Shown: piece after piece, positions 2,450 to 58,329 of the stretch
Position numbering within the stretch: position 1 is the first letter of the stretch
Layout of the letters: each line of letters starts with the position of its first letter
DNA from: Longimicrobiales bacterium
GTDB taxonomy: Bacteria; Gemmatimonadota; Gemmatimonadetes; Longimicrobiales; Gaopeijiaceae
Assembly: GCA_965219445.1 (NCBI GenBank)
Contig: CBDCNQ010000005.1
Coordinates: forward strand, 256,001 to 320,000
Reading direction: 5' to 3'
DNA: 64,000 nt
Notes under the pieces: model-generated
Database searches by the model: none
Seen by the model: the letters and a program-made list of their open reading frames with translations, nothing else
What the model was told of the DNA's origin: nothing
Program-made: the position numbers and the translations under genes

Positions 2450-2602
2450 ATGTCCGATCCAGTCGCCCGTCTCAACGCGGCTCTACAGGGTCGCTACCGC
2501 ATCGAGTCCGAACTCGGTGAAGGCGGCATGGCTATGGTGTACTTGGCCGAGGACGAGCGTGCACCTTGGGCTGGCGACGGCCTCGCAGGGGGAGGTTCCT
2601 GA
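2450..2602 (+). pseudogene. 5' fragment of a Hanks-type Ser/Thr protein kinase
   Basis: MSDPVARLNAALQGRYRIESELGEGGMAMVYLAEDE contains the kinase subdomain I glycine loop; unrelated sequence and a stop follow. Confidence 0.85.
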
Positions 2603-2679
2603 CAGCAGGGTGCCAAACTCGCAAAAGCGTCTTTGAAATGCCTATCCCTACTTCCATAGCCCGCGCCAGGCGTCATCTC

Positions 2680-3410
2680 ATGGCGACGATCGTGGTGTCG
2701 ATCACTCTCTCTCTGTCGACACAGGGGAAGGCGGACGCCCAGGCTCCGAGCCTATCGATGAACCTCGAGTGGTGGCACCCGTTCGCCGCCGGTGCCGGGG
2801 TAGCCACCCTCTTCCTGATCGATGAGCCCGTCCGCGACTTCCTCCAGGATCATCGGAGCGATGGGCTCAATGACCTGGGGGACGTCACGACGCACTTCAT
2901 GGACCCAGAGAAGTGTTTTGGATCTCGGGCGGCAGCGCCATCGCGCTCGGCCTGATCACGCAGGAGCCGAAAGTGACCGCCACGGGAGCGCACATCCTCG
3001 CCGCGTACGGCATTTCGTCGTGGATGATGATCGGCACGAAGTGGGCGTTCGGGCGATCACGCCCGTCGGACACTCCGGACGATCCGACCAACTTCGACTG
3101 GTTCGATGGTGGCGAGAACTCAGCCTTCCCGTCTGGAAGCGCCACTGTCGTCTTCAGCCTCGCCACCACGGTCGCCGACGCCGTCGACCGAAGGCCAGTG
3201 TCCGTTGTGTTGTACACGGGCGCCACCTTGAACGCCTGGGCCCGCCTGAACAGCGACCGGCACTGGTTGAGCGACGTCACGCTCGGCGCGCTGTACGGGG
3301 TGACGGCCGCCAAGCTCGTCAACGGCGAGTGGACAATCTTCGGCCTCGAGCTGCCGGCGATGTGGACGGATGGGCGCTCGGTGGGGCTGGGCTACACCCT
3401 CAGGTTCTGA
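2680..3410 (+). pseudogene. PAP2-family phosphatase, frameshifted at about 2908-2912
   Basis: KWAFGRSRP, FPSG and ARLNSDRHWLSDV motifs lie in ORF 2913-3410; the signal-peptide half is in another frame, joined at CCAGAGAAGTG. Confidence 0.75.
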
Positions 3411-3432
3411 CGCCTTGGATGATAGAAGCGAG

Positions 3433-3470
3433 GCGGCCACCTCCATCGTTCGGAGGTGGCCGTCTTCTCG
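3433..3470 (+). terminator. intrinsic terminator-like hairpin
   Basis: GCGGCCACCTCC-atcgttc-GGAGGTGGCCGT followed by CTTCT, just after the PAP2 gene. Confidence 0.65.
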
Positions 3471-4037
3471 TTCAGGACGCACCTTCGAGCAATCAGCGAG
3501 CCGCCCCAGCATCGTTCGATCTAAGGATTCTTCAACGACCGAGTCGCAACTATTCATTACATCCGCCCTCGCAATTTTTCCGGTTTTCGATTTTCGGTGT
3601 TCTCGTCTGAGACTGTAAGGCGGGTGGTTGTGGAATAGACCTTCCCCCTACGCACTCTGCACTCGCGTACTACGTCATTCGACGGCCAGGTGGTGGACGA
3701 AGAGGATGCCCAGCGGGGCGCACATGCGCAGGAGCTGGAGGAGTGCGGCTTCGACGTGTAGGGGTAGACCTTCCTCGCACAGGCCGCCGGATCGGGTTGC
3801 ACGCCATGGGCTTCGCCGCCTCCCTAAAGAGAGAGAGCAAGGTATTCGCAAGGGTAGGGGGCGGCAACCGAGAGAGGCGTGAGATCGCCGGCAAACCGGA
3901 GAACCAGCCGCCCCGCATCCGCACCGCCCGATGAGGGCGTTCTAACCAGCGATGGCTACTGACGTGGGGTCCGGCTAGATTGGGGGTGGTCACCACCGTA
4001 GCCGCGCAGCAGGAAGTAACGTAAAGCCGACTTATAA

Positions 4038-4937
4038 TTGGAGTGTTTGGTGCGGGCATTGTCAGTCTCTTTGAGTGCCGTCGCGCTTACGCTCCTCACG
4101 GCTGGGCCCGGTCCGTGGGACGACCCCTCGCGTGAGGAGCGCCCGGCCAGAACAGGTGAGCCGGTCGAATACACGTCTTTTCTGAGTCCGGCGGCGCTTT
4201 CCAGGGCCTTGGGGCTCGGCAGGTCGAACACCGCACCGGACGGAGCCACCCAGCAGGCAGAGGGAGTGCCGCGCGAGTTCTACTTCTCACGCGTTGCGTA
4301 TTCAGGATACGGGAGAGGGTACGGGCGGGGTTGGGGAAGATGGGCCACGGACTACCCGAAGGCTGACCAGATCTTTCTCTCGTTCATCGACCGCTTGCTC
4401 TCGAACCTCGACGCCTTCGAGCGTGAGCACCCCGTCCGTTTGGACGACCCTGGGGTCAGACGCTTCCCCTTCCTCTACGCTCTCGAGGTCGGTAGCATGG
4501 CCCTCACCGAGCCAGAAATCGCTGGGCTCCGGGACTACCTCCTCGCCGGAGGTTTTCTGGTCATCGACGACTTCTGGGGTTCGAGACAGTGGGCCAACTG
4601 GGAGAACGAGATCCGATCGGTGCTTCCCGGCTACGAGATTGTCGACCTGTCCCTCGACCATCCGATCTTCACGGCCTTCTACGAGATCGACGAGATCCTT
4701 CAAGTCCCCAACGTCCGCAACGGCATCCGTGGCGGGCCGACGCACCAGTCAGACGGGTACGTCCCCATGGTCAAAGGGATCCACGACGAGAACGGCCGAC
4801 TGATGGTGGTCATCAACTGGAACACCGACCTCGGCGACGCCTGGGAGTGGGCGGACAATCCCCGCTACCCCCTCAAGTACTCGACTTATGCGTACGAGAT
4901 GGGCGTGAATATGATCGTCTACGCGATGAGTCACTGA
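4038..4937 (+). CDS. DUF4159-domain protein
   Basis: WATDYPKAD, LRDYLLAGGFLVIDDFWG, NTDLGDAWEW, GVNMIVYAMSH; start codon uncertain. Confidence 0.8.
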   Translation: MECLVRALSVSLSAVALTLLTAGPGPWDDPSREERPARTGEPVEYTSFLSPAALSRALGLGRSNTAPDGATQQAEGVPREFYFSRVAYSGYGRGYGRGWGRWATDYPKADQIFLSFIDRLLSNLDAFEREHPVRLDDPGVRRFPFLYALEVGSMALTEPEIAGLRDYLLAGGFLVIDDFWGSRQWANWENEIRSVLPGYEIVDLSLDHPIFTAFYEIDEILQVPNVRNGIRGGPTHQSDGYVPMVKGIHDENGRLMVVINWNTDLGDAWEWADNPRYPLKYSTYAYEMGVNMIVYAMSH

Positions 4938-5029
4938 CTCGAGACATTTCTTCCGTTCGGCGGGCTGGGCACCTATGATGGCCGGGCCCGTCTCTGCTCC
5001 GACCACCTGCTTTCCTGCAAGGAGCCCGT

Positions 5030-6115: not shown

Positions 6116-6152
6116 GCCCGGATGCGACTGCCGGCGATTGAAGGAGGCCAGC

Positions 6153-6470
6153 GTGGCGTACTACTTGGTTGAAGCAGTGGCGAAGGAAGACCGACTCCCA
6201 GAGCTCTCAGAGCGGTTGGACAGAGACGAGTTCCTTCCCATGCGCCCCTTCGGCGCGTCCGTCACATTGTCGCTGCGTGGGGCCCGCAAGCGTCCCGATG
6301 GCGGAGTGGTTTGGGAGGAGGAGGACTATTGCTCACCGCCACTCGCCCAGGAACGCGCGGCGGTGCTCGACGAGTACTTCGAGGACCTTCGTGTCACAGC
6401 CGTCCAAAGAAATGAGGGCTGGGCCGAGATTCGTGATCTGCCGCGACTCTTCCCGGAGTTGGCGGAGTAA
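6153..6470 (+). CDS. conserved hypothetical protein
   Basis: AAGGAGG RBS before GTG; WEEEDYCSPPLAQER motif. Confidence 0.7.
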   Translation: MAYYLVEAVAKEDRLPELSERLDRDEFLPMRPFGASVTLSLRGARKRPDGGVVWEEEDYCSPPLAQERAAVLDEYFEDLRVTAVQRNEGWAEIRDLPRLFPELAE

Positions 6471-6690
6471 CGCGTCACAACACCGCCTCTCCTGCAGGGA
6501 GTCATCCTTCCGATCGCGCGGGCTCGCCCCACGCAAGGTGCCGTCGAGCGGATCCCGAGCCCCATGAATTTCCGCGCTTGCTAATCCGTTGGGTTCCGGC
6601 ACATCGTGAAATAGCGACATTTCCGCTTCCCTCGACGAGGACATCATGTTGAGTGCCTCGCCGTCCCAATCGTAGCCGGAACCGCCCCGC

Positions 6691-8824: not shown

Positions 8825-8882
8825 CGGCTCCGCCGCCCTCCAGCGCTCGCATCTGATTTGGCGCTTCTCGGAGCGTGCGGCC

Positions 8883-8959
8883 TGTGCGCGAAAGCCTGCT
8901 ATGTCGTATGATGACTGCCACGCTCCCGTGGCTTTCAGGCACGCATGACCGGTCCCATC
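8883..8959 (+). repeat. 77-bp dispersed repeat, copy A (promoter-like block plus kinase-start stub)
   Basis: Ungapped match to 58199-58275, 62/77 identical by manual count; contains a TATGAT -10-like hexamer. Confidence 0.85.
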
Positions 8960-8977
8960 AAGGCGAGGAAATGAGAA

Positions 8978-11146
8978 ATGACGAAGATGACAAAAGTTGA
9001 GCTTCGACCCGTCCGAACGCAGACTCTCGTGTTTTGCCTCGGCCTCGCCTTCACAGTCTTCATGGCGACGGCAGCGGCTGCCTTCGCTCAGCGCCTACCG
9101 GGGACCGAAAACGGTGAGTGGCGCTATCTGGGCGGCGATGCCGGGCACACCCGCTCCTCGCCCTTGAACCAAATCAACGCTGGCAACTTCGAGAACCTCG
9201 AGCAGCAGTGGGTTTGGCGGGGCGATAACTTCGGCCCCAACGTCGATTACTTTGCCAGGTCCACCCCGCTCTACGTCGACGGAATACTCTACACGGTGGT
9301 CACTCCGCGCCGGCAGGTGGTGGCGATCGACCCTGCCACGGGCGAGACGCTCTGGGTCTTTCGCGAGCCGGAGACGGTCAGGTTTTTGCGCTCTCCCAGG
9401 CGGGCCTACGGAAAAGGGGTCGCATACGGGGAGGTGGACGGGCGCGGAGTGATCTATTTCACTAGCCCCGCCTTCTTCCTTTGGGCGCTCGATGCCAAGA
9501 CGGGCCGGCCCTTGGAGAGCTGGGGCGAGCCCGTACCGCTCGACAATTTCTCCCAGACCGGTGCCCGCGATATGGTGCGGGACCTCCTGGACGGCTGGGG
9601 CCAGTGGGAGCGCTGGGACGAAGGACCGTACGACGCCGACTTCGGGGTCCCGAGGGAGCTCGGCATGGTCACCAGTTCATCGCCGCCGATCGTGGTGAAC
9701 GGGGTGGTCGTGGTGCTCGTGGGCCACGAGCCCAGCTATGGCCAGACCCGGATCCAGAACGTCCCGGGCGACATCATGGGGGTCGACGCCCGAACGGGTG
9801 AGTTGCTCTGGAAGTTCCACGTGATCCCGCGGCCCGGCGAGTTCGGGCACGAGACGTGGGAGAATGACGCCTGGCAGTGGTCGGGGGACCTGTCGTCGTG
9901 GGCTCCCGCGTCCGCCGACCCGGAGCTGGGGCTCGTGTACCTCGTGACGAACGCTTCGACGGTCCAGACGTACGCGGGCCATCGCCCGGGGCATAACCTG
10001 TTCGGCGGCAGCCTCCTCGCGTTGGACGTCCAGACGGGCGAGCGGAGGTGGCACTTCCAGATCCACCACAGCGACCAGTGGAATTACGACATTCCGGCGG
10101 CGCCCATTCTGATGGATCTGACGGTGGACGGAGAGCAGATCCCAGCGGTGATCCAGAACACGAAGCAAGGTCTCGTCTTCGCGTTCAACCGGGAGACCGG
10201 CGAGCCCATCTGGCCCATCGAGGAGCGCCCGGTCATTCAGACGCAAGTCCCTGGCAACTACACTGCGGCCACTCAGCCCTACCCGACCCTGCCGGAACCG
10301 TTGGACCCAATCGTAGTGGACGGGCTGACCGAAGAGTACCTCATCGACTACACTCCGGAGCTGAATGCGCAGGCGCAGATCATGCTGAGTCAGTTCCAGG
10401 TCGGGGGCCTCTACGTACCGCCGCTTCCCTTCAACCACGATAACGACTTCGTCAACAACGTCGGTTGCCAAGGGGGGTTGAACATCCCCCGTCCTGCGGT
10501 CGCGGATCCCAGCACGGGAATGATGTACGCGTCGCACAGCCGGACCTGCAGCGCCCGCCAGTTCATGGCGCCCACCAACGGGGTGGACGAAGAGCGCACG
10601 GAGTACGCCGTACCTGACGAGGGCGGTGCCACTCCCAACTATACTCCCACCACGGGCACCACGGTGGCAGCGTGGCTACCCGGGGGTGGCACAGGGCAGG
10701 GGCGGCTGGAGACGATCGAGGGCCTGCGGCTCTACAAGCCCCTGGACAACCAGCTCTCCGCCTTCCAGATGAACACGGGCAGGCAGGTCTGGTCGTTGCC
10801 AGTCGGCCAGACTCCTGAGCGGATCAGGAATCACCCTCTTCTGGCGGGAGTGGACGTTCCCAATACGGGAGGAGCCGGCGCGTCGATCCAGATGGTCATG
10901 GGCGATCTCTTGGTCCAGACCAGGGCGCTCAGTAACGGGGGCTCGCAGTTACTCCCGGATGCGCCGATGGAGCTCCATGCCCGCGACAAGCGGACGGGCG
11001 AGATCTTGGGGAGCGTCCCGCTTCCGGCCCCCGGCCAGTACGGGATGATGACCTACATGCACGAAGGCAGACAGTACGTCGTCGTGCAGATCGGGAGCAT
11101 CCGCACGGACTTCCCGGGCTCGCTGGTGGCCTACGCGTTGCCTTGA
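8978..11146 (+). CDS. PQQ-binding beta-propeller quinoprotein (glucose-dehydrogenase-like), copy 1
   Basis: Signal peptide; EWRYLGGDAGHTRSSPL, TGERRWHFQIHHSDQWNYD, FNRETGEPIWPIEERPV, MTYMHEGRQYVV. Confidence 0.9.
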   Translation: MTKMTKVELRPVRTQTLVFCLGLAFTVFMATAAAAFAQRLPGTENGEWRYLGGDAGHTRSSPLNQINAGNFENLEQQWVWRGDNFGPNVDYFARSTPLYVDGILYTVVTPRRQVVAIDPATGETLWVFREPETVRFLRSPRRAYGKGVAYGEVDGRGVIYFTSPAFFLWALDAKTGRPLESWGEPVPLDNFSQTGARDMVRDLLDGWGQWERWDEGPYDADFGVPRELGMVTSSSPPIVVNGVVVVLVGHEPSYGQTRIQNVPGDIMGVDARTGELLWKFHVIPRPGEFGHETWENDAWQWSGDLSSWAPASADPELGLVYLVTNASTVQTYAGHRPGHNLFGGSLLALDVQTGERRWHFQIHHSDQWNYDIPAAPILMDLTVDGEQIPAVIQNTKQGLVFAFNRETGEPIWPIEERPVIQTQVPGNYTAATQPYPTLPEPLDPIVVDGLTEEYLIDYTPELNAQAQIMLSQFQVGGLYVPPLPFNHDNDFVNNVGCQGGLNIPRPAVADPSTGMMYASHSRTCSARQFMAPTNGVDEERTEYAVPDEGGATPNYTPTTGTTVAAWLPGGGTGQGRLETIEGLRLYKPLDNQLSAFQMNTGRQVWSLPVGQTPERIRNHPLLAGVDVPNTGGAGASIQMVMGDLLVQTRALSNGGSQLLPDAPMELHARDKRTGEILGSVPLPAPGQYGMMTYMHEGRQYVVVQIGSIRTDFPGSLVAYALP

Positions 11147-11247
11147 TTGGGGCCAGCCGGCGGGGGCCATTCAGCCGGTAGGTGGATGTGCCAAAGCCGC
11201 CTTGAGGGGGTACGCTCGTAAGAGGCACCCCCACAAGGAGGACGTCG

Positions 11248-11937
11248 ATGGGCAAGAACATCGTCCACGTGATCGGAACCGGGACCATCGGTGAGCCGCT
11301 CGTGGGCCTGTTGGCCATTCATAAGGAAGAGTTCAACATCGATGAGGTCACGTTCCACAAGAACATGCCCTACAGTCACGACCGTCCCAAGCTCCTGCAG
11401 ATGATTGGGAAGGGCGCCAACATGGCGACCCGCAAGGACCGCATCGAGAAGTTCGAGGAGCAGGGTATCGAAGTCGCCTACGAGCAAGAGGAAGCGATCG
11501 AGCGGGCAACGGTGGTGATCGATTGCACGCCGAGCGGCATCGGCATCGACAACAAGAACGAGTTCTACGAGAAGTATCGTGACAGGGTACGTGGGTTCAT
11601 CGCCCAAGGTTCTGAGTTCGGGTTCGGCACGATGTACGCGCGGGGCATCAACGACGACGTGCTCGACGACAGCCACTCGCAATTCGTGCACGTGGTCAGC
11701 TGCAATACGCACAATCTGGCTGCGCTGCTGCAAACCTTGGGTGATGACAGCGCCGAGGGATTGGGGATCGAGGAAGCACGTTTCGTGTGTCTGCGGCGCG
11801 CGAACGACATTTCAGAGAACAGCGGGTTCGTGCCTGCACCGCAGCTCGGCGTTCACTCTGACTCACGCTTTGGCACCCATCACGCTCACGATGCGTACCA
11901 TTTGTTCAGGACCAAGGGTCACGAGCTGAATCTGTAT
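11248..11937 (+). pseudogene. archaeal (type II) GAPDH-like oxidoreductase, 5' part, interrupted by IS256
   Basis: VIGTGTIG Rossmann motif, VIDCTPSG, VVSCNTH catalytic-Cys motif, RRAND; AAGGAGG RBS. Confidence 0.8.
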
Positions 11938-13322
11938 GAGCTAGGATCAAGGGTGTGTAAAAAAAGAGGCGACGTACCTTTCCGCTAGGTAGTAAGAAGT
12001 TAACCAGCGAATCCCGGGTGAGCGCCCGGGGGAAAGGAACGATGCCTCGTGAGGAAGAATATGGTGGGACCCGAGAGTGAGTCCAGCACGCCGACGTGGG
12101 AGTGCTTGGAAGCGCTGGTTCGTGAGAAGGCCCAGGAGATGGTCCAGCGGATTCTGGAGGAGGAAGTGACGGAGTTGCTCGGCCGGGAGAAGTCGGAGCG
12201 GAAGACGGTCGTAGACCCGGCGCCAGGCTACCGCAACGGCTACGGCAAGGCTCGGCGGCTGGCGATGAGCTCGGGCACGATCATGCTCCGACGGCCCCGG
12301 GTTCGAGGCATTGAGGAGCGGTTCGAGAGTCGGGTGTTGCCGTTGTTCGCACGACGGACGAAGGAGGTGGGTGCTCTGCTTCCGGAGCTGTATCTGCACG
12401 GGCTGGCGGAGGGAGACTTCGAGCTGGCGATGCGGGGCCTGCTGGGCGAGGGGGCCCCGTTGTCGAAGTCTTCGATTTGGCGGCTGCGGGCGGGATGGAC
12501 AAGGAAATTCGAGGAATGGTCGAAGCGCTCGCTGGCCGACCGTGAGGTCGTCTACGTCTGGGCGGACGGGATCTACGTGAAGGCGGGGCTCGAGCGGGAC
12601 AAGGCAGCGCTGCTGGTGGTTCTCGGTGCGATGCGAGATGGTACGAAGGAGGTGTTGGCCCTGAGATCGGGCTACCGAGAGTCGGTCGAGTCCTGGTCCG
12701 AGGTGTTGCGGGATCTGAAGGCACGCGGCATCGAGGCGCCCCGGCTTTTGATGGCGGACGGCAACGCGGCGATCTGGGGCGCAGTACGGCAGGTATGGCC
12801 TGAGGCGGGCGAGCAACGGTGCTGGAACCACAAGATGAGGAACGTGCTGGACCGGCTGCCTCAGCGGGAGCAGAGCGAGGCGAAGGACCTTCTCAGGACC
12901 GTGGTCTACGCACCGAGGCGGTCCGAGGCGCTGAAGGCCCGTGAGGCGTTCGCCAGGCGCTACAGACCGTGGTATCCGAAGGCGGTGGATGTACTCGAGG
13001 ACGACTGGGAGCGGATGGTGGCGTTCTACGACTTCCCCGAGGACCACTGGAAGCATCTACGCACGACGAACGTGGTCGAGAGCCCCTTTGCCGCAGTACG
13101 GCTCAGGACAACGGCGGCGAAGCGCTTCAAGCGGGTCGAGAGCGCTACGGCGCTGATCTGGAAGCTGCTCTTGGTGGCGGAGAAGCGCTTCAGAAGGCTC
13201 GACGCTCCTCACCTCCTCAAGGACGTATTTGAAGGAAGAAAGTTCGAAGACGGAAAGCCCGTCTCAACCCAACAGCGGAAAAACGCCGCCTGAAACATTT
13301 ACACACCTATTGACCCAACCTC
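11938..13322 (+). mobile_element. IS256-family insertion sequence, 1385 bp
   Basis: Imperfect terminal inverted repeats GAGCTAGGATCAAGGGTGTGTAAA and TTTACACACCTATTGACCCAACCTC around the transposase; no target duplication visible. Confidence 0.9.
12049..13293 (+). CDS. IS256-family transposase (Mutator type)
   Basis: YRNGY, VWADGIYVK, ADG, QRCWNHK, LRTTNVVES. Confidence 0.95.
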   Translation: MRKNMVGPESESSTPTWECLEALVREKAQEMVQRILEEEVTELLGREKSERKTVVDPAPGYRNGYGKARRLAMSSGTIMLRRPRVRGIEERFESRVLPLFARRTKEVGALLPELYLHGLAEGDFELAMRGLLGEGAPLSKSSIWRLRAGWTRKFEEWSKRSLADREVVYVWADGIYVKAGLERDKAALLVVLGAMRDGTKEVLALRSGYRESVESWSEVLRDLKARGIEAPRLLMADGNAAIWGAVRQVWPEAGEQRCWNHKMRNVLDRLPQREQSEAKDLLRTVVYAPRRSEALKAREAFARRYRPWYPKAVDVLEDDWERMVAFYDFPEDHWKHLRTTNVVESPFAAVRLRTTAAKRFKRVESATALIWKLLLVAEKRFRRLDAPHLLKDVFEGRKFEDGKPVSTQQRKNAA

Positions 13323-13323
13323 C

Positions 13324-13569
13324 TCTGCCAACGACATCTTCTCCTTCGGTCGCGAGCACGGTCACTACGGCCGCATCCTGAGCCATACGGTGGTGCCCAC
13401 CCCAGTGCTCGCAGCTCGGGGCGATCACGAGATCGTGGGCTCTTGCTTCACGCCGCAGGATGGCAATTCATTGCTGTCTTCGATCGCGCAGACGTTGCGG
13501 TGGCTGGATCGGGACAGCCTGGACGACCGGATCGACTGTCTGCGGCCGTATCTGTTCCAGGAGATTTAG
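13324..13569 (+). pseudogene. GAPDH-like oxidoreductase, 3' part
   Basis: Open frame resuming right after the IS: SANDIFSFGREHGHYGRILSHTVV...CFTPQDGNSLLSSIA...LFQEI*. Confidence 0.75.
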
Positions 13570-13670
13570 GGGGCAACCACCATCAGAAGATCATCCGGGA
13601 GGTGCTCGACGCGAGGGCGGACCGTAGTTTCAAACTCAATGCCCGATCCCATCAAGGCGAGGAATGAGGA

Positions 13671-15839
13671 ATGACCAAGATGATGAACGTTGAGCTTCGA
13701 CCCGTCCGAACGCAGACTCTCGTGTTTTGCCTCGGCCTCGCCTTCACAGTCTTCATGGCGACGGCAACGACTGCCTTCGCTCAGCGCCTCACAGGGACCG
13801 AGAACGGTGAATGGCGTTACCTGGGCGGCGATGCCGGGCACACCCGCTCCTCGCCCCTGAGCCAAATCAACGCCAACAACTTCGAGGACCTCGACGTGCA
13901 GTGGATCTGGCGGGGCGACAACTTCGGCCCCAGCGTCGACTACTTCATGCGTTCCACTCCGATCTACGTCGACGGAATGCTCTACACGGTGGCCACTCCG
14001 CGGCGGCAGGTGGTGGCCATCGACCCCGCTACGGGGGAGACGATCTGGGTCTTCCGCGAGCCCGAGACCACCCGGTGGTTGCGCTCTCCCAGACGGTCCT
14101 ACGGAAAAGGGGTCGCCTACGGCGAGGTGGACGGCCGCGGGGTGATCTACATGACGACTCCCGGCTTCTTCCTTTGGGCGCTCGACGCCAAGACGGGCCG
14201 GCCCTTGGAGGACTGGGGCGCACCCGTACCGCTCGATGATTTCGAACAGACCGGTGTCGTTGACCTGGTCCCGCAGCTCCTGGACGGCTGGGGCCAGTGG
14301 GAGCGCTGGGATGAAGGCCCGTACGACCCCGACTACGGGGTCCCGAGAGAGCTCGGTATGGTCACCAGCTCGTCGCCGCCGATCGTGGTGAACGGGGTGG
14401 TCGTGGTCCTCGTGGGCCACCAGCCCAGCTACGGCCAGACCCGGGTCGAAAACATCCCGGGCGACATCATGGGGTTCGACGCCAGAACCGGAGAGTTCCT
14501 CTGGAAGTTCCACGTCATCCCGCGGCCCGGGGAGTTCGGCCACGAGACATGGGAGAACGACGCCTGGCAGTGGTCGGGAGACCTTTCGTCATGGGCTCCT
14601 GCCTCCGCCGACCCGGATCTGGGGCTCGTCTACCTCGTGACGAACGCGTCGACGGTGCAGTCGTACGCGGGTCATCGGCCGGGGCACAACCTGTTCGGCG
14701 GTAGCGTCCTCGCGTTGGACGTCCAGACGGGCGAGCGGAGGTGGCACTTCCAGATCCACCACAGTGACCAGTGGAACTATGACCTTCCGACGCCGCCCAT
14801 GCTGATGGATCTGACCGTGAACGGAGAGCAGATCCCCGCGTTGATCCAGAACACGAAGCAGGGCCTCGTCTTCGCGTTCAACCGGGAGACCGGCCAGCCC
14901 ATCTGGCCCATTGAGGAGCGTCCGGTCATTCAGACCCAAGTTCCCGGCAACTATACGGCGGCCACGCAGCCCTATCCGACCCTGCCCGAACCGCTGGACC
15001 CGATCGTATTGAACGGGCTGACCGAAGAGTTCGTCATCGACTACACGCCGGATCTGAAGGCGCAGGCGCAGATCATGCTGAGTCAGTTCCAGATCGGGGG
15101 TCTCTACGTGCCGCCTCTTCCCTTCGACCACGACAACGACTTCGTCAACAACGTTGGCTGTACGAGCGGCGTGAACGTCCCCTTTCCGCCGGTCGCGGAT
15201 CCCAGCACAGGAATGATGTACGCATCGCACCAACGGGGCTGCAGCGCCCCCGGGTTCATGGCGCCCACGGGCGGGGTGGACGTGGACGACTCGGACTATG
15301 CCGTGCCCAACGCTGACGGCGCTACCCCCAACTATACTCCTACCACGGGCACCACGGTGGCAGCGTGGCTGCCCGGCGGTGGCGGAGGGGAGGGGCGCCT
15401 GGGGACGATCGACGGCCTGCGGCTCTGGCGGCCCATGGAGAGCCGGCTCACTGCCCTCCAGATGAACTGGGGCGAGCGGGTCTGGTCGTTGCCGGTCGGC
15501 GAGACTCCCGAGCGGATCAGGAACCACCCGCTTCTGGCGGGAGTGGACATTCCCAATACGGGAGGAATCGGCTTGTCGATCCAGATGGTCATGGGTGATC
15601 TCTTGGTTCAGACCAGGGCGCTCAGTCGAGGCGTCGTGCAGTTTCTCCCCGACGCCCCGTTGGCGCTCAATGCCCGTGACAAGCGGACGGGCGAGATCCT
15701 GGGGAGCGTCGAGCTTCCGGCCCCCGGCCAGTACGGGATGATGACCTACATGCACGAAGGCAAACAGTACGTCGTCGTGCAGATCGGGAGCGTCCGCACC
15801 GACTTTCCGGGCTCGCTGGTGGCGTATGCGCTGCCGTGA
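13671..15839 (+). CDS. PQQ-binding beta-propeller quinoprotein, copy 2
   Basis: Same length (722 aa) as 8978-11146 with long identical stretches. Confidence 0.9.
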   Translation: MTKMMNVELRPVRTQTLVFCLGLAFTVFMATATTAFAQRLTGTENGEWRYLGGDAGHTRSSPLSQINANNFEDLDVQWIWRGDNFGPSVDYFMRSTPIYVDGMLYTVATPRRQVVAIDPATGETIWVFREPETTRWLRSPRRSYGKGVAYGEVDGRGVIYMTTPGFFLWALDAKTGRPLEDWGAPVPLDDFEQTGVVDLVPQLLDGWGQWERWDEGPYDPDYGVPRELGMVTSSSPPIVVNGVVVVLVGHQPSYGQTRVENIPGDIMGFDARTGEFLWKFHVIPRPGEFGHETWENDAWQWSGDLSSWAPASADPDLGLVYLVTNASTVQSYAGHRPGHNLFGGSVLALDVQTGERRWHFQIHHSDQWNYDLPTPPMLMDLTVNGEQIPALIQNTKQGLVFAFNRETGQPIWPIEERPVIQTQVPGNYTAATQPYPTLPEPLDPIVLNGLTEEFVIDYTPDLKAQAQIMLSQFQIGGLYVPPLPFDHDNDFVNNVGCTSGVNVPFPPVADPSTGMMYASHQRGCSAPGFMAPTGGVDVDDSDYAVPNADGATPNYTPTTGTTVAAWLPGGGGGEGRLGTIDGLRLWRPMESRLTALQMNWGERVWSLPVGETPERIRNHPLLAGVDIPNTGGIGLSIQMVMGDLLVQTRALSRGVVQFLPDAPLALNARDKRTGEILGSVELPAPGQYGMMTYMHEGKQYVVVQIGSVRTDFPGSLVAYALP

Positions 15840-20328: not shown

Positions 20329-20437
20329 ACGACTGTAGGGGGCGCTCCATGAGCGCCGCCTGACCATAACGTAGCTTGCCGCCCCACACCCCTTAGACGC
20401 CTATTGACCGCCATGTCCGATGCCGCCACCCGCCCGG

Positions 20438-20956
20438 CTAAAAGGGCTTGTAGAACGTCAGCAGGCGGCCATAGGTGATGATCCCCAGCCAAAGGATCAG
20501 GGAGATTCCACCGATAAGTCTGGCTCTCATCGGCGCGTGCTCCCCGGCCTTCACGCCCTCCACATCACGATAGGCTACTAGGTAGAAGACCAGAAGGTTG
20601 ATCCCGCTCAGCAACATGAACAGCATCTTGAATGCAAATGCTGCGTTGTAGATGAAATCGGCCGGCGTACCCACGAAGAACAGGGTGCCGGTGATGAGGT
20701 TGATTCCGAAGCCAAGAACACCGATGGGGACGAGCTGATGGAGGGTGGACGGCTGCAGATTCTTGGCGAACCCGAGCAAACGCAAATCGAATAGTCCCAC
20801 AGTTCCGATCAATAGCGAGAGTCCCAGGAAGTGAAGGGACTCCATCGCCTGCCACAAATACTGGTTACCGGTGACGAACGACGACAGCGCCGTGCCTTGC
20901 AGCCAAAGCTCCAGGGATTCGAGCATTTCGAGGGACTCGAGAAAGCTGGTCATCAC
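20438..20956 (-). CDS. DUF6644-type membrane protein
   Basis: ESLHFLGLSLLIG..DLRLLG, F..KM, GRLL. Confidence 0.75.
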   Translation of the reverse strand: MMTSFLESLEMLESLELWLQGTALSSFVTGNQYLWQAMESLHFLGLSLLIGTVGLFDLRLLGFAKNLQPSTLHQLVPIGVLGFGINLITGTLFFVGTPADFIYNAAFAFKMLFMLLSGINLLVFYLVAYRDVEGVKAGEHAPMRARLIGGISLILWLGIITYGRLLTFYKPF

Positions 20957-21459
20957 TGGAGAAAGAGCATGTCTTCGCTCGTCAGCACGGTATAGGTATA
21001 CGCCAGCAAGCGCCCTGCCGTGATTACGGAAACCCAGAGAAGAAGCGACATGCCCGCCAGGATCTTTGCCTTTTTCGGAATGAGGTCATTCGAGCCGGGG
21101 CTGCGCACGTGGGTTTGTAGCCGCCACAGGACGATCAGGGCAAGCGCAATGAGCGTCAGTTTGACGTAGAAGACCGGGTTCGTGAAGGCTTTTACGGGAT
21201 AGGCGATCAAGAGCGCGCTACCGGACAGAGCGTTGACCACGAGGCCGAACCACATGAGGGGGAAAACCCTTTCCATGGACCGGAGGGGTATGGATTCGGC
21301 GAGGCCGAGGATTCTGAAATCGAGTGCGGCATTCATTCCCACAAGAAACGCCATGCCGATGGCGTGCAGGACCAGCGGCACCGGAAACGCCCACATGGAA
21401 GGTGACTCGCGGAGCCAGGTACCGTAGGCAGTCTGTTCGACCCAGATAAGGATATCCAT
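20953..21459 (-). CDS. DUF6644-type membrane protein (paralog)
   Basis: LHAIGMAFLVG..DFRILG, NPVFYVKL, AGRLLAY; overlaps the next gene. Confidence 0.75.
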   Translation of the reverse strand: MDILIWVEQTAYGTWLRESPSMWAFPVPLVLHAIGMAFLVGMNAALDFRILGLAESIPLRSMERVFPLMWFGLVVNALSGSALLIAYPVKAFTNPVFYVKLTLIALALIVLWRLQTHVRSPGSNDLIPKKAKILAGMSLLLWVSVITAGRLLAYTYTVLTSEDMLFLQ

Positions 21460-21725
21460 TTCGACATTCCGTTGGGTGTGATCGCGGCCACGTTATCGGA
21501 AGCTGCGGGGAAGATCAACGTGGTGGAGCGAGCCAACGCTGATCAGACTCGCGTACGCCGTCGAACACGCCACGCGTATTCGGCGGCCCGGACCAGCACA
21601 CCGCCGCTGTCAGTTGAACGCGGTCTGATCCGGAGTGCGCCCGTGCCCGATCCGGTGACTCGTCTGAACCCGCAGTAGCCCGGGGGAGGTTGCACTGGCG
21701 TTTCCCGTGCAAGAGCTTCAGCACC

Positions 21726-49263: not shown

Positions 49264-49264
49264 C

Positions 49265-51025: not shown

Positions 51026-51258
51026 CCGAGCCGCCAAGCTCTGCAGGAATCGGGTTCTCAGGACTCTCGACGTCCCAGACGATGTTCGTGATCCACCATC
51101 GTCCACCGGCGACGCGACATCGGCAGGGTCAGCCGCCCCTATCGTCGAATTCTTGAAGTCCTCCGTTCTATCTAGCATGGGATTCCGCCTCGGTCTTGGT
51201 CGTCGCAAAGTAGCTCGATCCTTGCAGCCCGACACGCCTGAGACGCATGTTGTCTGTC

Positions 51259-51690
51259 ATGTCGGATCGCATCACCCAGGACCTTCCTCAGGCGCTCCAC
51301 GGCTTTCTTGAGCTGTTCAATGCGGGAGAGTACTGGGAGAGCCACGAGGTGCTCGAGGGCCCATGGCGCGAGGGGGGGAGCGACTTCTACCAGGGCTTGA
51401 TCCTCTACGCCAGTGCGTTCGTACACGCCCAGCGGGGCAACGCACGCGGCATCGGCGCGCAGCTCGAGAAGGCAGAGCGGAAGCTGGCCGGGTACCGGCC
51501 ATGCTACCTGGGTGTCGACGTCGATGCCGTGCTTGCCCACGCGGCCCGCTGCCGCGAGCTCGTCGAACGTCGTCGGGACGAGGACCCGCGTTCGTGGCTG
51601 GAAGTCGCCGACGTGCCTCACCTCGAGCTCGACAGACGGCTCGTGCGCGGGGACGAGCCAGAGCTCCGGCCACTACCGGATACTCGATGA
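51259..51690 (+). CDS. DUF309-domain protein
   Basis: LFNAGEYWESHEVLE..W, FYQGLI. Confidence 0.88.
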   Translation: MSDRITQDLPQALHGFLELFNAGEYWESHEVLEGPWREGGSDFYQGLILYASAFVHAQRGNARGIGAQLEKAERKLAGYRPCYLGVDVDAVLAHAARCRELVERRRDEDPRSWLEVADVPHLELDRRLVRGDEPELRPLPDTR

Positions 51691-52062: not shown

Positions 52063-52144
52063 CCTGTTGACGGGCCGGGGCTCTGCGCACAGCATGTCTC
52101 AAACACCCAGCCAATAGGCTACAGACCCACGAGGCTTCAGAACG

Positions 52145-53356: not shown

Positions 53357-53369
53357 CGCGCAGGCCTCA

Positions 53370-54341: not shown

Positions 54342-54376
54342 GGCCCTTCACCCGTCCATGCTGCTGAAGATCGGCC

Positions 54377-56011
54377 TCACCCGTTTACGGCTGCATCCCT
54401 GCCGGCGACGCGGCCAAACAGCGAGGATCTACCCAGGCCATGCTGAGGAAATCCGCCCATGGATTCGCCGCAGGTATATAGACCGGTGATCACCTCTCCG
54501 TGGACGTCGATCACCCGACACCTGGTGTCTACTCTCAGTCCACACAAGGAGTCGTGCAGGACGGGCGTGGACCACGCAGCGTAGAACGGCGGTGTCTGGA
54601 TCTTGTAGCGAGGAGTCGGCTTGCCGAAGTCCTCGTCCGTTCCTGCGTCTACGAAGGAGTTGTAACGGGACACCGTTTCCTGCAACACGGCGCCTCGCAT
54701 GGGCAGAGTCTGATAGGGATTCTCAATCTTCCCCGCCAATTCCGCGAGCGTATCGGCACTGTAGAAATACCCGTTCGGATCCACGTTCGGTGGGGTGGGA
54801 TCCCACCTCTGGCGCGTTACCGCCTCTGCGTCGAAGATCGCCCAGATCGGTCCTCCACCGTTCTTCTCGTTCGGATCCCCACTGTACGACATGCAGGCTG
54901 CGAAGAAGTCGTGCCCTCCGTCCGTCTCATCGTGAAACCGCACACCCGTCTGCTTCACGAGGATGGCGTTCTGCCAATTCACGCCCGTCAAGCCGGAGGC
55001 GCGCACCTTGTCGAAGATGGGACTGTCGGGCTGCCAATGCAGGCTCGAATAGCCGTATTGACACCCGATATGAGCCGTCTTCGAGATCGCGGCCCCAGCC
55101 TCCATGGTCTGGCTGGCGGTCCCCCAGAGCGCCGCTCCGAGCGCCATGGCCGCGAGCTCTCCATCCGCGGTTTGCTTGGAGTAAGGCTCGCCTGCGACCT
55201 GATATTCCTCGGTCAGCCGGGGGTCGAACGTGCGCCGAAAGTTCACGTTGCTCGTATGTCCCCCCGTCGCGAGAACCAATCCCTTGGTCCCCCGGATCCG
55301 CACCGTCTGACCTTCATGGACCGCCTCCAATCCCACGACCCTTCCCGTGGACGGGTCCTGAACGAGCTCTGTCATCTTATGGAGCAGCAGGATCTGGGCG
55401 CCTTTGGCCCGGGCGCTCTTCTCCAGCGCTCTGACGAGCCCCGACCCGCGCCGGGTCTCAACCGACGTGATCAGCTCCTCGTAAACGGGCCACTGAAGAG
55501 TCCGCCCATTTCTCGAATCGCCTCCTGCCACCTCGTCTTGAAACTGCACGCCGTTTTCAACCATCCACTCGAAGGTCTCGGTGCTCAGGTCTGCGTACAC
55601 CCGGGTGAGATCCCGGTCCGTGTATCGCGTTTGATAGGGTTGCGGGCGTATCCAATCCGCGAACACGGCGTCCGCTGAGTCCTCCACGCCGTGCCTCCGC
55701 TGGCGAGTCGTTCCTCCGCCCAGGTTCACACGTCCGCCGCTCACCATTCCATGGCCACCGCAGTCGTTGTTCTCCTCCACCATGATCACGGAGGCGCCAC
55801 GATCAAGGGCCTCAATCGCGGCAGAGAGCCCCGACACGCCGGCTCCGGCGATCACGACATCCGCGGTCATGCCCCACTCTTGCGCGGGACTCTGTCCCTC
55901 GAGGTCGTCCCCGACCACCCCGCCCAGGGCTGTCGCACCGAGGCCGGCGGCTGTGCCTTTCTTGACGAAACCGCGTCTGCTGATCGAACCGTTGGGCCTG
56001 TCCTTGCTCAT
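54377..56011 (-). CDS. Tat-exported FAD-dependent oxidoreductase (flavocytochrome c / succinate-dehydrogenase flavoprotein family)
   Basis: SRRGFVK; GAGVSG, LATGG, GLYTCGE, FGRVAG. Confidence 0.9.
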   Translation of the reverse strand: MSKDRPNGSISRRGFVKKGTAAGLGATALGGVVGDDLEGQSPAQEWGMTADVVIAGAGVSGLSAAIEALDRGASVIMVEENNDCGGHGMVSGGRVNLGGGTTRQRRHGVEDSADAVFADWIRPQPYQTRYTDRDLTRVYADLSTETFEWMVENGVQFQDEVAGGDSRNGRTLQWPVYEELITSVETRRGSGLVRALEKSARAKGAQILLLHKMTELVQDPSTGRVVGLEAVHEGQTVRIRGTKGLVLATGGHTSNVNFRRTFDPRLTEEYQVAGEPYSKQTADGELAAMALGAALWGTASQTMEAGAAISKTAHIGCQYGYSSLHWQPDSPIFDKVRASGLTGVNWQNAILVKQTGVRFHDETDGGHDFFAACMSYSGDPNEKNGGGPIWAIFDAEAVTRQRWDPTPPNVDPNGYFYSADTLAELAGKIENPYQTLPMRGAVLQETVSRYNSFVDAGTDEDFGKPTPRYKIQTPPFYAAWSTPVLHDSLCGLRVDTRCRVIDVHGEVITGLYTCGESMGGFPQHGLGRSSLFGRVAGRDAAVNG

Positions 56012-56334
56012 GATCGGTCTCCGCTTCTCATGTGATCGAGACTCCCCCCGCTCTTCTCAAAGCGATGGGGCTCCCGCGCCCGGTGCACCGCCTTCCGCCA
56101 CTACCTCTTCTGTCCTACGAAGCTGCCGAGATCAGGATGGGAAAGTTCACAGGCCCTGTCCAGTACGGGGGGTCGGTCTGGGGTGGCTGCTCGCTGCAAG
56201 GAGCGAGACGGTCACTTGATCCCGACCCTTCGGACAGCTATTTGATAGGAGTGTCTGGCCGTGTCGTGGATCCCGCTGGAATGGAGGTCGAAATGAGCAA
56301 TCGTATGGCGGTGGGTGGTCGAGGCCATGCAGTG

Positions 56335-57393
56335 ATGTCGCGTTACTCCGCTCTATTTCTAGCCGTTCTCTGTACAGCCGCAGCGCCCGGCGCCGTTTCG
56401 AGCGCGGCGGCGCAGGCTCGAGCCTCCGACACCGGAAATTGGGAAGTCCCCAGGACACCCGACGGCCATCCGGACTTTCAGGGGATCTGGACGAACTCGA
56501 CGCTCACTCCGTTCGAGCGGGAAGAGGGTAGGGGAGCGGTGTTCACTCGGGAGGAAGTCGAGGAGATCGAGCGGCCAGACGGAGTCTGCCCCCCCAACCC
56601 GGGGACGGTCGAGTGCGGAAGGGTCCTCGCCGAGTCCGGGACGAATGAGGTTCGACTGCGCGGCCAGGAGTACAACGAGGTCTATTGGGATCGGGGCACG
56701 CGGGTTGCAGTCGTCGACGGCGAGCCCAGATCCTCTCTGGTCACCCATCCGGCGAACGGGCGCCGTCCGGCCCTCACGCCGGAGGGCGAGCGGCGGATCC
56801 AGGAGTCCCGGGACTTCAGGGGCCAATTCGGCCTCTACGACCACCCGGAGCTGAGACCACTCGGCGAGCGCTGCATCATTTTAGGTTCCCCTGCGGGACC
56901 CCCCATGGTCCCTGTCGGGGCGTACAACTCCAACTACATAATCGTACAGACGGCCGATCACGTGATGATCATGACGGAAATGGTCCACGATGCGCGGATT
57001 ATCCGGATCGGTGACGGCCCGCGGCTGCACCGAAACGTCCGTCCGTGGTTCGGCGACTCTTGGGGTCGGTGGGAAGGTGACGCACTCGTGGTCGAGACCA
57101 CGAACCTCAATCCACAACAGTCTGTCCAGCGAGTCCCCCCCTCGGAGCACATGAAGGTGACCGAACGCTTCACTCGGGTCGACGAAGAGACGATCCTCTA
57201 CGAGTTCACCGTCGATGACCCGACGATGTACACTCAAGCCTGGGGAGGAGAGATTCCGATCAAGAAGTTGAACAACAGGGTCTACGAATACGCTTGCCAC
57301 GAGGGCAACTACGGTCTGACCGGCGTTCTGAGCGGCGCGCGTTATGAGGAGAGAATGGAGGCGCAGGGATCGAGCGGTGCTAGCCGTGACTGA
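56335..57393 (+). CDS. secreted conserved hypothetical protein
   Basis: PRTPDGHPDFQGIW, ERC, GDSWGRWEGDALVVETTN, EYACHEGN; start uncertain (56281, 56293 or 56335). Confidence 0.8.
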   Translation: MSRYSALFLAVLCTAAAPGAVSSAAAQARASDTGNWEVPRTPDGHPDFQGIWTNSTLTPFEREEGRGAVFTREEVEEIERPDGVCPPNPGTVECGRVLAESGTNEVRLRGQEYNEVYWDRGTRVAVVDGEPRSSLVTHPANGRRPALTPEGERRIQESRDFRGQFGLYDHPELRPLGERCIILGSPAGPPMVPVGAYNSNYIIVQTADHVMIMTEMVHDARIIRIGDGPRLHRNVRPWFGDSWGRWEGDALVVETTNLNPQQSVQRVPPSEHMKVTERFTRVDEETILYEFTVDDPTMYTQAWGGEIPIKKLNNRVYEYACHEGNYGLTGVLSGARYEERMEAQGSSGASRD

Positions 57394-57519
57394 GAGCCGT
57401 GAGTGTCTCTTCCATGGGTCAGTCGTGCGGCCCAAAAGGGCCAGATTGTCCCCGGCACCCGCTCCCTCCTCCGGGACTTTTCGCTCGCAGGCGCATGATT
57501 CGCACGGATTCGTGAAACA

Positions 57520-57534
57520 TGGCATGGTCCATGC
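57520..57534 (+). promoter_or_regulatory. possible sigma-54 promoter
   Basis: TGGCATGGTCCATGC (GG-N10-GC), about 85 bp upstream of 57620. Confidence 0.55.
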
Positions 57535-57619
57535 GAATTAGGACGTACGACGCCCGAGCATAGGGTGTCGGGAGAAAGGCCCGAATGGGGCCTCCCGAGC
57601 ATCAACACCTGGAGGACGC

Positions 57620-58039
57620 ATGAATACCATTGGAAAGGTGATGAGCATGGTGATCCTGGCGGGTGCCCTGACCGCCATGAGCCCTGGGCCTCTCTGGGCC
57701 CAAGCGACGGATAATGCCCCCACTGAGGACGCGCTCGCCGAGCGGAAGCCTCACGCGGAGCTGGTTGTGCAGAACAACAATTGGTTGGATGCGCACGTAT
57801 ACGTGGTGCGGGGGGGTAGGAGGACCTCATTGGGCCTCATGACCGCGCTCGGGAAGAGTAAGTTCGAGCTTCCGTCGTGGGCCACCCTACCCGGCGATGA
57901 CTTCCAGATCCTGGTCCACCTGATCGGCGGGGCGTCCTATCTGACACCGCTGGTCCACGTGTACCGCGGAGACGTAGTGGAGTTGGTGGTTCAGAACAAC
58001 CTTGGCCTGAGCAGCGCGGTGGTCTTCCGCGCTGGGTGA
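57620..58039 (+). CDS. secreted hypothetical protein
   Basis: GGAGG RBS; signal peptide; beta-rich domain. Confidence 0.75.
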   Translation: MNTIGKVMSMVILAGALTAMSPGPLWAQATDNAPTEDALAERKPHAELVVQNNNWLDAHVYVVRGGRRTSLGLMTALGKSKFELPSWATLPGDDFQILVHLIGGASYLTPLVHVYRGDVVELVVQNNLGLSSAVVFRAG

Positions 58040-58096
58040 CAGTGATCTGAGGGAAGGCCGGGGCGATCGGTCTTAGGACCCTCGACTGCGATCATC

Positions 58097-58130
58097 ACGG
58101 GAGAGTCCATTCATGGACTCTCCCGTTCTT
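58097..58130 (+). terminator. intrinsic terminator
   Basis: ACGGGAGAGTCCAT-tc-ATGGACTCTCCCGT followed by TCTT. Confidence 0.8.
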
Positions 58131-58198
58131 GCAAATCCTTACTACCGAACCACTTCTCCAGTCGGGACGGCCGGATCGCGGACCCGTTGGGAGCCAAT

Positions 58199-58275
58199 TG
58201 TGCGCGCAAGCCCACTATGTCGTATCATGACAGGCACGCTCCCGTGGCCCTGAGGCGCTCATGCCTGATCCCGTC
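58199..58275 (+). repeat. 77-bp dispersed repeat, copy B
   Basis: Ungapped match to 8883-8959. Confidence 0.85.
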
Positions 58276-58329
58276 ACCCGCCTGAACGCGGCCCTAGAAG
58301 GGTGCTACGCCACATTGAACGAGGGTTGA
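58261..58329 (+). pseudogene. Ser/Thr kinase 5' stub
   Basis: MPDPVTRLNAALEGCYA... aligns with the 2450 fragment MSDPVARLNAALQGRYR. Confidence 0.75.

Follow-up and report, generated by a model that had tools for sequence, protein, structure and literature searches.

Truncated 5′ ends of a sensor-kinase gene family in a Longimicrobiales genome: probable relics of gene decay with putative promoter reuse

Introduction

Short recurring sequences between or beside unrelated genes are known from several bacterial systems. In integron arrays, unrelated modules lie on the same strand, separated by a recurring short sequence, and one cargo can be met in different contexts. Integrative elements at transfer RNA (tRNA) or transfer-messenger RNA (tmRNA) genes leave scars of fixed length that are taken from the target gene's 3′ end and border an integrase-carrying element, while dispersed repeats such as insertion sequence (IS) copies and ribosomal RNA (rRNA) operons provide crossover points for homologous recombination that changes gene order. 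Here we analyse a stretch of 64,000 nucleotides (nt), the window, from a Longimicrobiales bacterium (Gemmatimonadota; assembly GCA_965219445.1, contig CBDCNQ010000005.1), in which short pieces of the 5′ end of a Ser/Thr kinase gene, hereafter called stubs, precede unrelated genes. The window corresponds to C5:256001-320000 of the source genome (G000; 4.56 Mb in 5 contigs). An earlier reading made from the letters of the window alone (the sequence-only reading) had noticed six stubs and had suggested a gene-capture hotspot; taken together with related genomes, the most likely explanation overall is gene decay combined with promoter reuse rather than a new gene-capture machine.

The stubs share features with each of these systems. 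As in integron arrays, a recurring short sequence lies between unrelated modules and cargo occurs in different contexts among relatives, but an integrase nearby and an attC-like site are both absent, crossover positions are variable, modules contain multiple genes in both orientations, and the repeat contains a putative promoter. As with the scars of tRNA and tmRNA elements, short same-strand copies of one gene end border accessory DNA, whereas here the copies are 5′ ends, variable in length and without element structure. The likeness to dispersed repeats lies in near-identical sequences acting as crossover points, with gene order differing between close relatives; unlike IS copies and rRNA operons, the repeats here are the 5′ ends of protein-coding paralogs and their relics, and each crossover would also swap a putative promoter.

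Putative mobile promoters are a further described case (Nijveen, Matus-Garcia and van Passel 2012; PMC3575422). They were defined as upstream regions at least 80% identical over at least 50 nt that stand before non-homologous genes, and the article gives their route of mobilisation as not known and states that promoters extending into coding sequence were filtered out of the survey. The upstream regions that we call classes B and C (see Results) likewise reach at least 80% identity over at least 50 nt, with downstream genes that are not paralogs. They differ from the surveyed promoters in coming from one kinase family and often carrying its first 4–35 codons, in that the route can be read from relatives for several joins (deletion of the kinase, then trimming), and in that three types of putative promoter appear exchanged at one junction. 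Promoter capture by rearrangement, for which the same article cites citrate use in E. coli and ldh in L. lactis, is similar in that a gene comes under a foreign promoter after a structural change of the DNA, which in our case is inferred from sequence. As cited there, those events involved duplication or IS activity under laboratory selection, whereas the window and its genome would hold dozens of natural fusions, mostly made by deletion of the promoter's own gene. A search of the literature on mobile promoters in prokaryotes and on Gemmatimonadota kinases found no description of the stubs of this kinase family. The phenomenon is one of pseudogene relics and promoter reuse, both of known kinds, with an unusually clear record of its origin.

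Results

Stubs of one kinase family

The source genome encodes 15 full-length Ser/Thr kinases of 745–933 residues (typically ~890) that form one paralogous family; the glycine-loop pattern, searched as a regular expression across all six reading frames, occurs at 28 places, 15 of them with more than 700 residues following. Conservation across the 15 kinases falls from 88–96% in the first ~100 residues to ~75–90% in the kinase domain and 30–50% in the C-terminal half. One full-length paralog matched Pfam Pkinase (E 4.4e-47) and, in its sensor part, PD40 beta-propeller repeats. To count truncated copies, a position weight matrix (PWM) made from the first 300 nt of 14 kinase copies and anchored at the start codon was run over both strands, with the reversed genome as control. 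It returned 54 matches of at least 25 bits against 0 in the control (69 against 2 at 20 bits or more, 96 against 5 at 18 bits or more); the stubs are commoner than chance matches. Seventeen of the 54 have a length of 299–300 nt. A frameshifted full gene and a doubtful case account for one each, and the other 35 are shorter stubs; with the addition of the window stub at 21643 (22.6 bits), the total is 36 stubs of 18–229 nt, 29 of which are shorter than 100 nt. A tblastn search with one full kinase gave 68 high-scoring segment pairs, including 22 truncated pieces that start at residue 1–15.

Seven stubs lie in the window (Table 1), composed of an upstream region and the first 4–35 codons of the kinase. 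The six plus-strand stubs of the sequence-only reading are real according to the profile scan, the upstream classes and, for 8945, the layout of the G006 orthologue; a seventh at 51259 and a class B upstream copy at 1920–2006 are additional. The 2450 stub contains 35 kinase codons, including the LGEGGMA glycine loop, and then continues as unrelated sequence to the stop codon. It aligns with residues 1–35 at 80% identity in tblastn, and nhmmer with the kinase 5′ end detects it at E 6.4e-22 (58261 at E 4.6e-9). Its 50-residue open reading frame (ORF) matches no Pfam family, and a complete catalytic domain is not recognised in it. The glycine-rich loop of subdomain I (GxGxxG) is found in this stub only, since the other window stubs stop before the loop. 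The stubs are fragments, not kinases. An intact kinase is absent from the window, as already observed: tblastn finds only the 2450 stub, and none of the 62 window ORFs has a Pkinase match. Pfam also bears out the names given to the cargo, namely tannase, sugar transferase, two DUF6644 proteins, two pyrroloquinoline quinone (PQQ) dehydrogenases and the PAP2 phosphatase. All seven stubs share the plus strand; this same-strand pattern, however, does not go beyond gene orientation in the window, where 35 of 53 genes are on the plus strand (p ~0.055) and the DUF6644 pair is on the minus strand.

Elsewhere in the source genome (C3:175787-177010), a 407-residue PD40/He_PIG protein is joined in frame to a kinase stub of 45 nt and may be a kinase minus only its kinase domain.

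Within the genus, 10 of 11 other genomes contain the kinase 5′ end; outside it, the 5′ end was found in 0 of 1 other genus in the same family and in 2 of 8 genomes from other families of the order. G006 has 34 matches to the kinase 5′ region (22 5′-anchored stubs, 4 long matches and 8 others) and G007 has 38 (20 5′-anchored stubs, 8 long, 2 intermediate and 8 others). Long kinase-domain matches number 26–27 in G005, 18–19 in G008, 8–9 in G007 and 3 in G006. The ~20 PQQ-dehydrogenase paralogs, examined as a control family, are essentially without fragments, so it is the kinases in particular that are turning over. Searches with two full kinase genes found no orthologue of their sensor parts at the nucleotide level in five relatives.

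Three classes of upstream region

Homology reaches upstream of the kinase start codon, where alignments and nhmmer distinguish three recurrent types. Class A covers ~40 nt ending at the ATG, with a -35-like hexamer ~38 nt before the start, and by its sequence looks like a leaderless design. Class B covers ~100 nt with a Shine-Dalgarno leader and was modelled from 8 kinase-linked upstream regions. Class C covers ~60 nt and is common to 58261 and 8945, whose regions are 88% identical over 50 nt (E 8.8e-8). The -35/-10-like layout of these types was recognised by eye in the alignments. Against Rfam, at gathering thresholds, the whole window gave 0 matches, so the upstream regions are not explained by any known RNA.

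Class A and B regions also stand before non-kinase genes without any kinase codons, as at window 1920–2006, before DUF309 in G004, at C4:272613-272688 in the source genome, at an ADOP-type permease and at others; window positions 1916–2010 are 82–90% identical over 54–91 nt to three kinase-linked class B regions. The genes downstream of stubs are not paralogs of one another and include those for tannase, PQQ dehydrogenase, DUF309, sugar transferase, PAP2, aldo-keto reductase, DUF5916, an esterase and a methyltransferase, among others. Behind 16 of 41 candidate stubs, the following ORF on that strand begins at most 50 nt away or is fused in frame, and 4 of the 36 stubs precede DUF5916/CBM9 genes, against 0.26 expected.

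Two intact kinases lie just past the window end on the plus strand (C5:322583 and C5:326297). In both, a mini-stub or a ~40-nt insert separates a broken class A region from the kinase's own start codon (C5:322487-322582 and C5:326216-326296), and these are further scars at kinase 5′ ends.

Orthologous loci in relatives

Long-range synteny between the window and five relatives is almost absent; the matches, at 71–97%, are to individual genes or small groups of genes in scattered places. The earlier statement that stubs occupy module junctions applies to five of the seven, which lie exactly at homology boundaries (8883, 13649, ~21690, 51276 and 58304). The flanks of 2450 and 20413 have no match in the five relatives.

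Most PQQ-dehydrogenase paralogs and orthologues have a native upstream region ending in a 5′ untranslated region (UTR) that contains CCATCA. The G005 orthologue of the PQQ dehydrogenase at 13671–15839 is preceded by a full-length kinase, whose end is ~165 nt away. At window 8945, the class C region and 11 nt of kinase are joined to the PQQ 5′UTR at CCATCA, a 6-nt microhomology with kinase codons 4–6. The module from 8883 onwards is conserved in G007 (93%) and G006 (88%), and the G006 copy has the same layout as window 8945 with its start codon mutated. The join is what a deletion from the kinase start to the leader of the next gene would leave. At the second PQQ gene of the window, which follows the 13639 stub, homology to relatives begins at 13649–13655.

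A kinase remnant with both ends is preserved in G005 at the orthologue of the amidohydrolase gene (window 52145). Upstream of this orthologue stand a class C region, kinase nt 2–95, the last ~60 nt of a kinase and 39 nt, and the ~60-nt remnant ends in the C-terminal motif of the family. In G007, a class B region with a 70-nt stub is joined directly to the gene; G004 has the same junction with the upstream part lost; the source genome and G006 have a different upstream region and no stub.

The tannase gene is 97% identical to that of the source genome in G007 and 95% in G006, and both relatives have a 59-nt stub and an identical stub-spacer-tannase junction. In the source genome, the downstream end of this junction is kept and, relative to G006 and G007, 50 nt are missing between two ACGCCA repeats, so that stub erosion is seen directly. 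Upstream of the stub, G007 has a class A region, G006 a class B region and the source genome a class C region. DNA further upstream is unrelated or unalignable among the three, and DNA 3′ of the tannase is common to G006 and G007 and not to the source genome. Between the G006 and G007 stubs there are 6 differences in the first 24 positions and 1 in the next 35, a pattern that fits a crossover near nt 24–30. In G005 and G008, no kinase was found within ~4 kb downstream of the flank orthologous to that upstream of 58261, and an intact-kinase allele of this locus was not found there.

Other loci vary in comparable ways. A small gene is preceded by class A and 20 nt of kinase in G007, by class B without codons in the source genome and by class C with ~50 nt in G006, the last few stub bases before the gene being kept in all three; a DUF5916 gene has class A with 48 nt in the source genome and class B with ~17 nt in G006. 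Both patterns may reflect one old junction followed by internal deletions and promoter exchange, a reading with few bases behind it. The DUF309 gene follows class A and 6 kinase codons in the source genome and class B without kinase codons in G004, and has a longer N-terminus in G006; its orthologues in G006 and G004 match from 51276/7 onwards only. Orthologues of the sugar transferase in G008 (89%) and G006 (77%) have no stub, and homology begins at ~21690–21709.

Exchange between kinase 5′ ends

Among 14 paralogs, identity at four-fold degenerate sites of identical residues is 0.69 in codons 1–25, 0.59 in codons 26–50 and 0.40–0.52 in the rest of the kinase domain. At the DNA level the copies stay similar to one another at the extreme 5′ end, as would result from exchange between them. 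The first codons also vary together with the upstream class: GCT stands at codon 6 in 7 of 13 class B and 0 of 22 class A copies, and GCC at codon 4 in 9 of 22 class A and 1 of 13 class B copies, which indicates that the promoter and the first ~20 nt travel together. The sequence-only reading had proposed that the kinase 5′ end is a recurrent recombination point, and this part of it is supported by the tannase junction behind three upstream types and by the homogenisation of codons 1–50.

Other relics and breakpoints

Fragments of other kinds were also found in the source genome, including ~12 non-anchored fragments of the first 450 nt (nhmmer), 9 relics of the 3′ end (6 from a C-terminal motif scan with 21 matches and 3 from tblastn) and one relic with an internal deletion (C3:331603 plus 331792-331965). 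Ordinary decay, as framed earlier, would leave remnants of the kinase middle and 3′ end as often as those of the 5′ end. Such relics exist, and at 60 residues or more the two ends are represented about equally, with 7 relics of the 5′ end and 4 of the 3′ end; within the equally conserved first 450–600 nt, however, most fragments begin at or upstream of the start codon (22 against 8 in G006 and 20 against 8 in G007, with the source genome similar).

Stubs in the window end after 11, 16, 19, 22, 27, 52 and 105 nt, and no common motif was found after the stub breakpoints. Ends at nt 80–89 occur in 8 of 36 stubs of the source genome, and ends at nt 76–88 in 5 of 21 in G006 and 5 of 20 in G007. A breakpoint hotspot at nt 80–89 was rejected, as a scan statistic gave p ~0.5 under exponential and log-uniform nulls and 0.001–0.01 only after post hoc restriction. 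IS insertion was likewise rejected as a general cause of stubs, given that the 400-nt stretches behind 41 stubs are for the most part unique and do not represent the end of a common element; one stub, of 330 nt, abuts a multi-copy IS. The idea that the stub is a conserved leader peptide was discarded because tails and lengths differ and the G006 PQQ copy has no start codon.

In metagenome contigs from four public runs, the stub is high-copy, with a depth of 400–530 against ~5–40 beside it, and many loose ends fall at 58260. One low-depth contig from marine sediment joins 59935, just after the tannase, to 58251, at the kinase 5′ start, with 3 bases between them; a kinase after the tannase in another organism explains this contig equally as well as a tandem or circular module.

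Discussion

We consider it probable, at roughly 60%, that the stubs are relics of the 5′ ends of a PD40-sensor Ser/Thr kinase family, made by microhomology-mediated deletions that fused a kinase promoter to the next gene. On this account, kinases of the family often have another gene immediately behind them, in many cases one for a secreted or periplasmic enzyme, and a deletion from inside the kinase to a point before the next gene would leave promoter, stub and gene in a row, after which further deletions would trim the stub successively. The upstream types would be promoters from which the downstream genes are now transcribed, and stubs may persist through selection for expression of the downstream gene from the kinase promoter. 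The near-identical 5′ ends, ~50 per genome, could then cross over by ordinary homologous recombination, swapping promoters and scrambling gene order. Evidence for this reading includes the microhomology at two deletion junctions (ACGCCA at the 50-nt deletion in the tannase stub and CCATCA at the kinase-PQQ join) and the more complete copies in the relative G005, which has a full kinase before the PQQ orthologue and the two-ended kinase remnant before the amidohydrolase orthologue. In this relative the cargo already lies downstream of an intact or gutted kinase, and the junction microhomology is typical of deletion; both speak against the earlier proposal that new genes replaced the kinase body. 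Kinases upstream of cargo in relatives, the 3′ and internal relics and the microhomology argue that independent decay, which the sequence-only reading had listed as its duller alternative, is the main process.

Several observations weigh against this explanation. Ten of the 41 candidate stubs face an opposite-strand gene and drive nothing obvious; among them is 20413, which faces the ends of the DUF6644 genes and is probably a dead relic for that reason. Co-orientation of stubs with the next gene (31 of 41) is not clearly above the genome value of 61%, and the sugar transferase downstream of 21643 retains a promoter-like region of its own. Since the kinase 5′ end is far better conserved than the rest, part of the excess of 5′ relics (36 against 9) is a matter of detection. 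Swaps at the fixed tannase junction need a crossover within at most 59 nt of ~85% identical DNA, which is short for RecA recombination, and the upstream flanks of the tannase stubs in G007 and G006 are mosaics or match elsewhere, with no reciprocal recombination product found. Before the amidohydrolase gene, three unrelated upstream contexts stop at one nucleotide, and the upstream sequence of the source genome is no more like the 39 nt of G005 than shuffled sequences are; such coinciding boundaries are not predicted by independent random deletions. There is also a modest pile-up of stub ends at nt 76–89 in three genomes, and at the DUF5916 locus C2:376227, where the source genome has a 229-nt stub, neither a kinase nor a stub is present in the 3.2 kb upstream in four relatives.

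The alternative that survives best, though we regard it as unlikely, is pure independent decay, in which random deletions and IS activity left stubs without any role, the 5′ excess is a detection artefact and the promoter differences merely reflect different ancestral kinases. The non-anchored fragments and 3′ relics, the ratio of 7 to 4 among the longer relics, the stub next to a multi-copy IS, and the dozens of IS3 copies alongside few intact kinases in G006 and G007 are all in keeping with it. It does not account for the start-anchored majority of fragments in a region that is equally conserved throughout, for the strong skew of stub lengths to below 100 nt, or for one tannase junction behind three promoter classes, and the homogenisation of synonymous sites in codons 1–50 needs exchange between copies.

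Exchange itself might be the work of something more specialised. It is conceivable, but we think it distinctly doubtful, that the first 75–150 nt of the kinase genes and their promoter form a dedicated recombination handle, acting through short homology or site-specifically, with ~50 docking sites per genome at which promoters are swapped and modules moved. The short crossover, the amidohydrolase boundaries, the pile-up at nt 76–89 and the DUF5916 locus fit poorly with deletion and ordinary recombination, and this leaves room for such a process. If the handle were real, it would amount to an integrase-free cassette system that rewires the expression of periplasmic enzymes and sensor kinases throughout the genus.

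It is improbable that the kinase 5′ end is an att-like, site-specific capture hotspot at which incoming genes replace the kinase body and build up an integron-like cassette array, as first suggested. The position of stubs at module boundaries would agree with capture, as would the coinciding cargo-side boundaries at the amidohydrolase and DUF309 genes and the clustering of stub ends in three genomes, and a single element inserting at a fixed position of three kinases could also place an identical stub-tannase junction behind three kinase promoters. However, breakpoints spread over 11–229 nt, unlike an att-like scar, without a shared motif behind them, and the cluster at nt 80–89 is not significant under smooth nulls. 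A Pfam scan of the 62 window ORFs found only IS3 (rve) and IS256 (Mutator) transposases and no integrase or resolvase. The sequences after the 41 stubs are mostly unique, no kinase remainder lies beyond the cargo, and relatives have kinases upstream of that same cargo. Cargo blocks include opposite-strand genes and genes with promoters of their own, and the DNA downstream of the tannase is common to G006 and G007, so that only the upstream side changed.

Least probable, in our judgement, is that the A, B and C regions are mobile promoter elements, MITE-like (resembling miniature inverted-repeat transposable elements) or otherwise carried, that sometimes take a few kinase codons along: class A and B regions do precede non-kinase genes without kinase codons, and identities of 82–90% over 54–91 nt fit the operational definition given in PMC3575422, but the alignments inspected have no terminal inverted repeats, target duplications or fixed right end, class A homology starts exactly at the -35-like hexamer and a similar layout upstream of the sugar transferase suggests a shared promoter design, and the evidence for deletion at the PQQ and amidohydrolase genes explains the joins without transposition.

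On the preferred explanation of deletion and promoter reuse, the window and its relatives offer a readable natural record of how an expanding and collapsing gene family leaves promoters to its neighbours, a route left open in the literature on promoter reuse. They also indicate that the 5′ ends of paralogs, besides IS elements, can be repeats that reshuffle gene order and promoter-gene pairings in a genus. For annotation, stubs yield false short ORFs and false N-termini, for example at the DUF309 gene (51259) and at an aldo-keto reductase (C2:410550). Should the exchange be driven by a dedicated mechanism, it would represent a new kind of promoter-shuffling system.

Other features of the window

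Table 1. Stubs, upstream regions and associated genes in the window, with window positions.
Feature	Position	Strand	Evidence and context
Class B upstream copy without kinase codons	1920–2006	+	nhmmer E 4.4e-20; before DUF6176-like ORF 2055–2399
Kinase stub, 50-residue ORF	2450–2602	+	First 105 nt (2450–2554) homologous; PWM 112.7 bits
PAP2 phosphatase ORF	2913–3410	+	Pfam PF01569, E 7.7e-15; downstream of 2450 stub
Class C upstream region (8886–8944) and 11–12-nt kinase stub from 8945	8886–8956	+	Fused to PQQ-dehydrogenase 5′UTR
PQQ dehydrogenase	8978–11146	+	Behind class C region and 8945 stub
16-nt kinase stub, upstream region lost	13639–13654	+	PWM 20.5 bits; before duplicated PQQ dehydrogenase 13671–15839
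Class A upstream region and 22-nt stub	20369–20412 and 20413–20434	+	nhmmer class A E 3.6e-9; PWM 26.5 bits
Two DUF6644 genes	20438–21459	-	Pfam; ends face 20413 stub
Partial class B leader (21612–21642) and 27-nt stub with GTG start at 21643	21612–21669	+	nhmmer E 0.0014; PWM 22.6 bits
Class A region and 19-nt stub	51216–51258 and 51259–51277	+	nhmmer E 2.5e-8; PWM 21.8 bits
Class C region and 52-nt stub	58199–58260 and 58261–58312	+	PWM 66.7 bits; before tannase
Tannase	58333–59919	+	Pfam PF07519, E 3.6e-105
IS3-family transposase genes	3–1258	-	Pfam rve and HTH_Tnp_1; element ~1–1331
IS256 (Mutator family) transposase	12049–13293	+	Pfam PF00872, E 8.1e-59; inserted into the gene between the two PQQ modules

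The ORF at 2055–2399, behind the class B copy, has a weak Pfam match to DUF6176 (E 0.0013). A signal-like ORF at 2638–2955 lies in a different frame from the PAP2 ORF, and a frameshift is possible there. The 51259 stub is fused in frame to the DUF309 gene, which ends at 51690 (Pfam DUF309, E 5.4e-19).

Most PQQ-dehydrogenase paralogs and orthologues in the genus share a conserved ~90-nt upstream element before the Shine-Dalgarno sequence (L021, L022, L024, L026, L007 and L023), a candidate regulator site or leader RNA. The IS256 element, which lies between the two PQQ modules, has split one gene: window 11192–11937 and 13323–13571 are contiguous in G005, and the two halves lie at 11248–11988 and 13323–13571. 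The IS3 element is present in dozens of copies, ~87% identical, in G006 and G007, with few matches in G005, G008 and G004, which points to a recent expansion of IS3 in some members of the genus, namely those in which intact kinases are fewest.

Sequences of 45–90 nt, at window 3678–3760 and 21523–21611 and at L009:1484-1531, recur at 87–98% identity in unrelated places in several genomes of the genus, and may be MITEs, terminators or small RNAs; one of them (21523–21611) lies directly upstream of the 21643 stub. The ORF at 56032–57393 matches no Pfam family; it is one of a large set of paralogs, with about a dozen copies in the source genome and many more matches in relatives. Finally, 1.9 kb of the source genome (C4:1222455-1224358) is 100% identical to C7:64692-66595 of G007, while the two genomes otherwise differ by 3–29% at matched genes, which suggests a recent transfer of a mobile element between their lineages.

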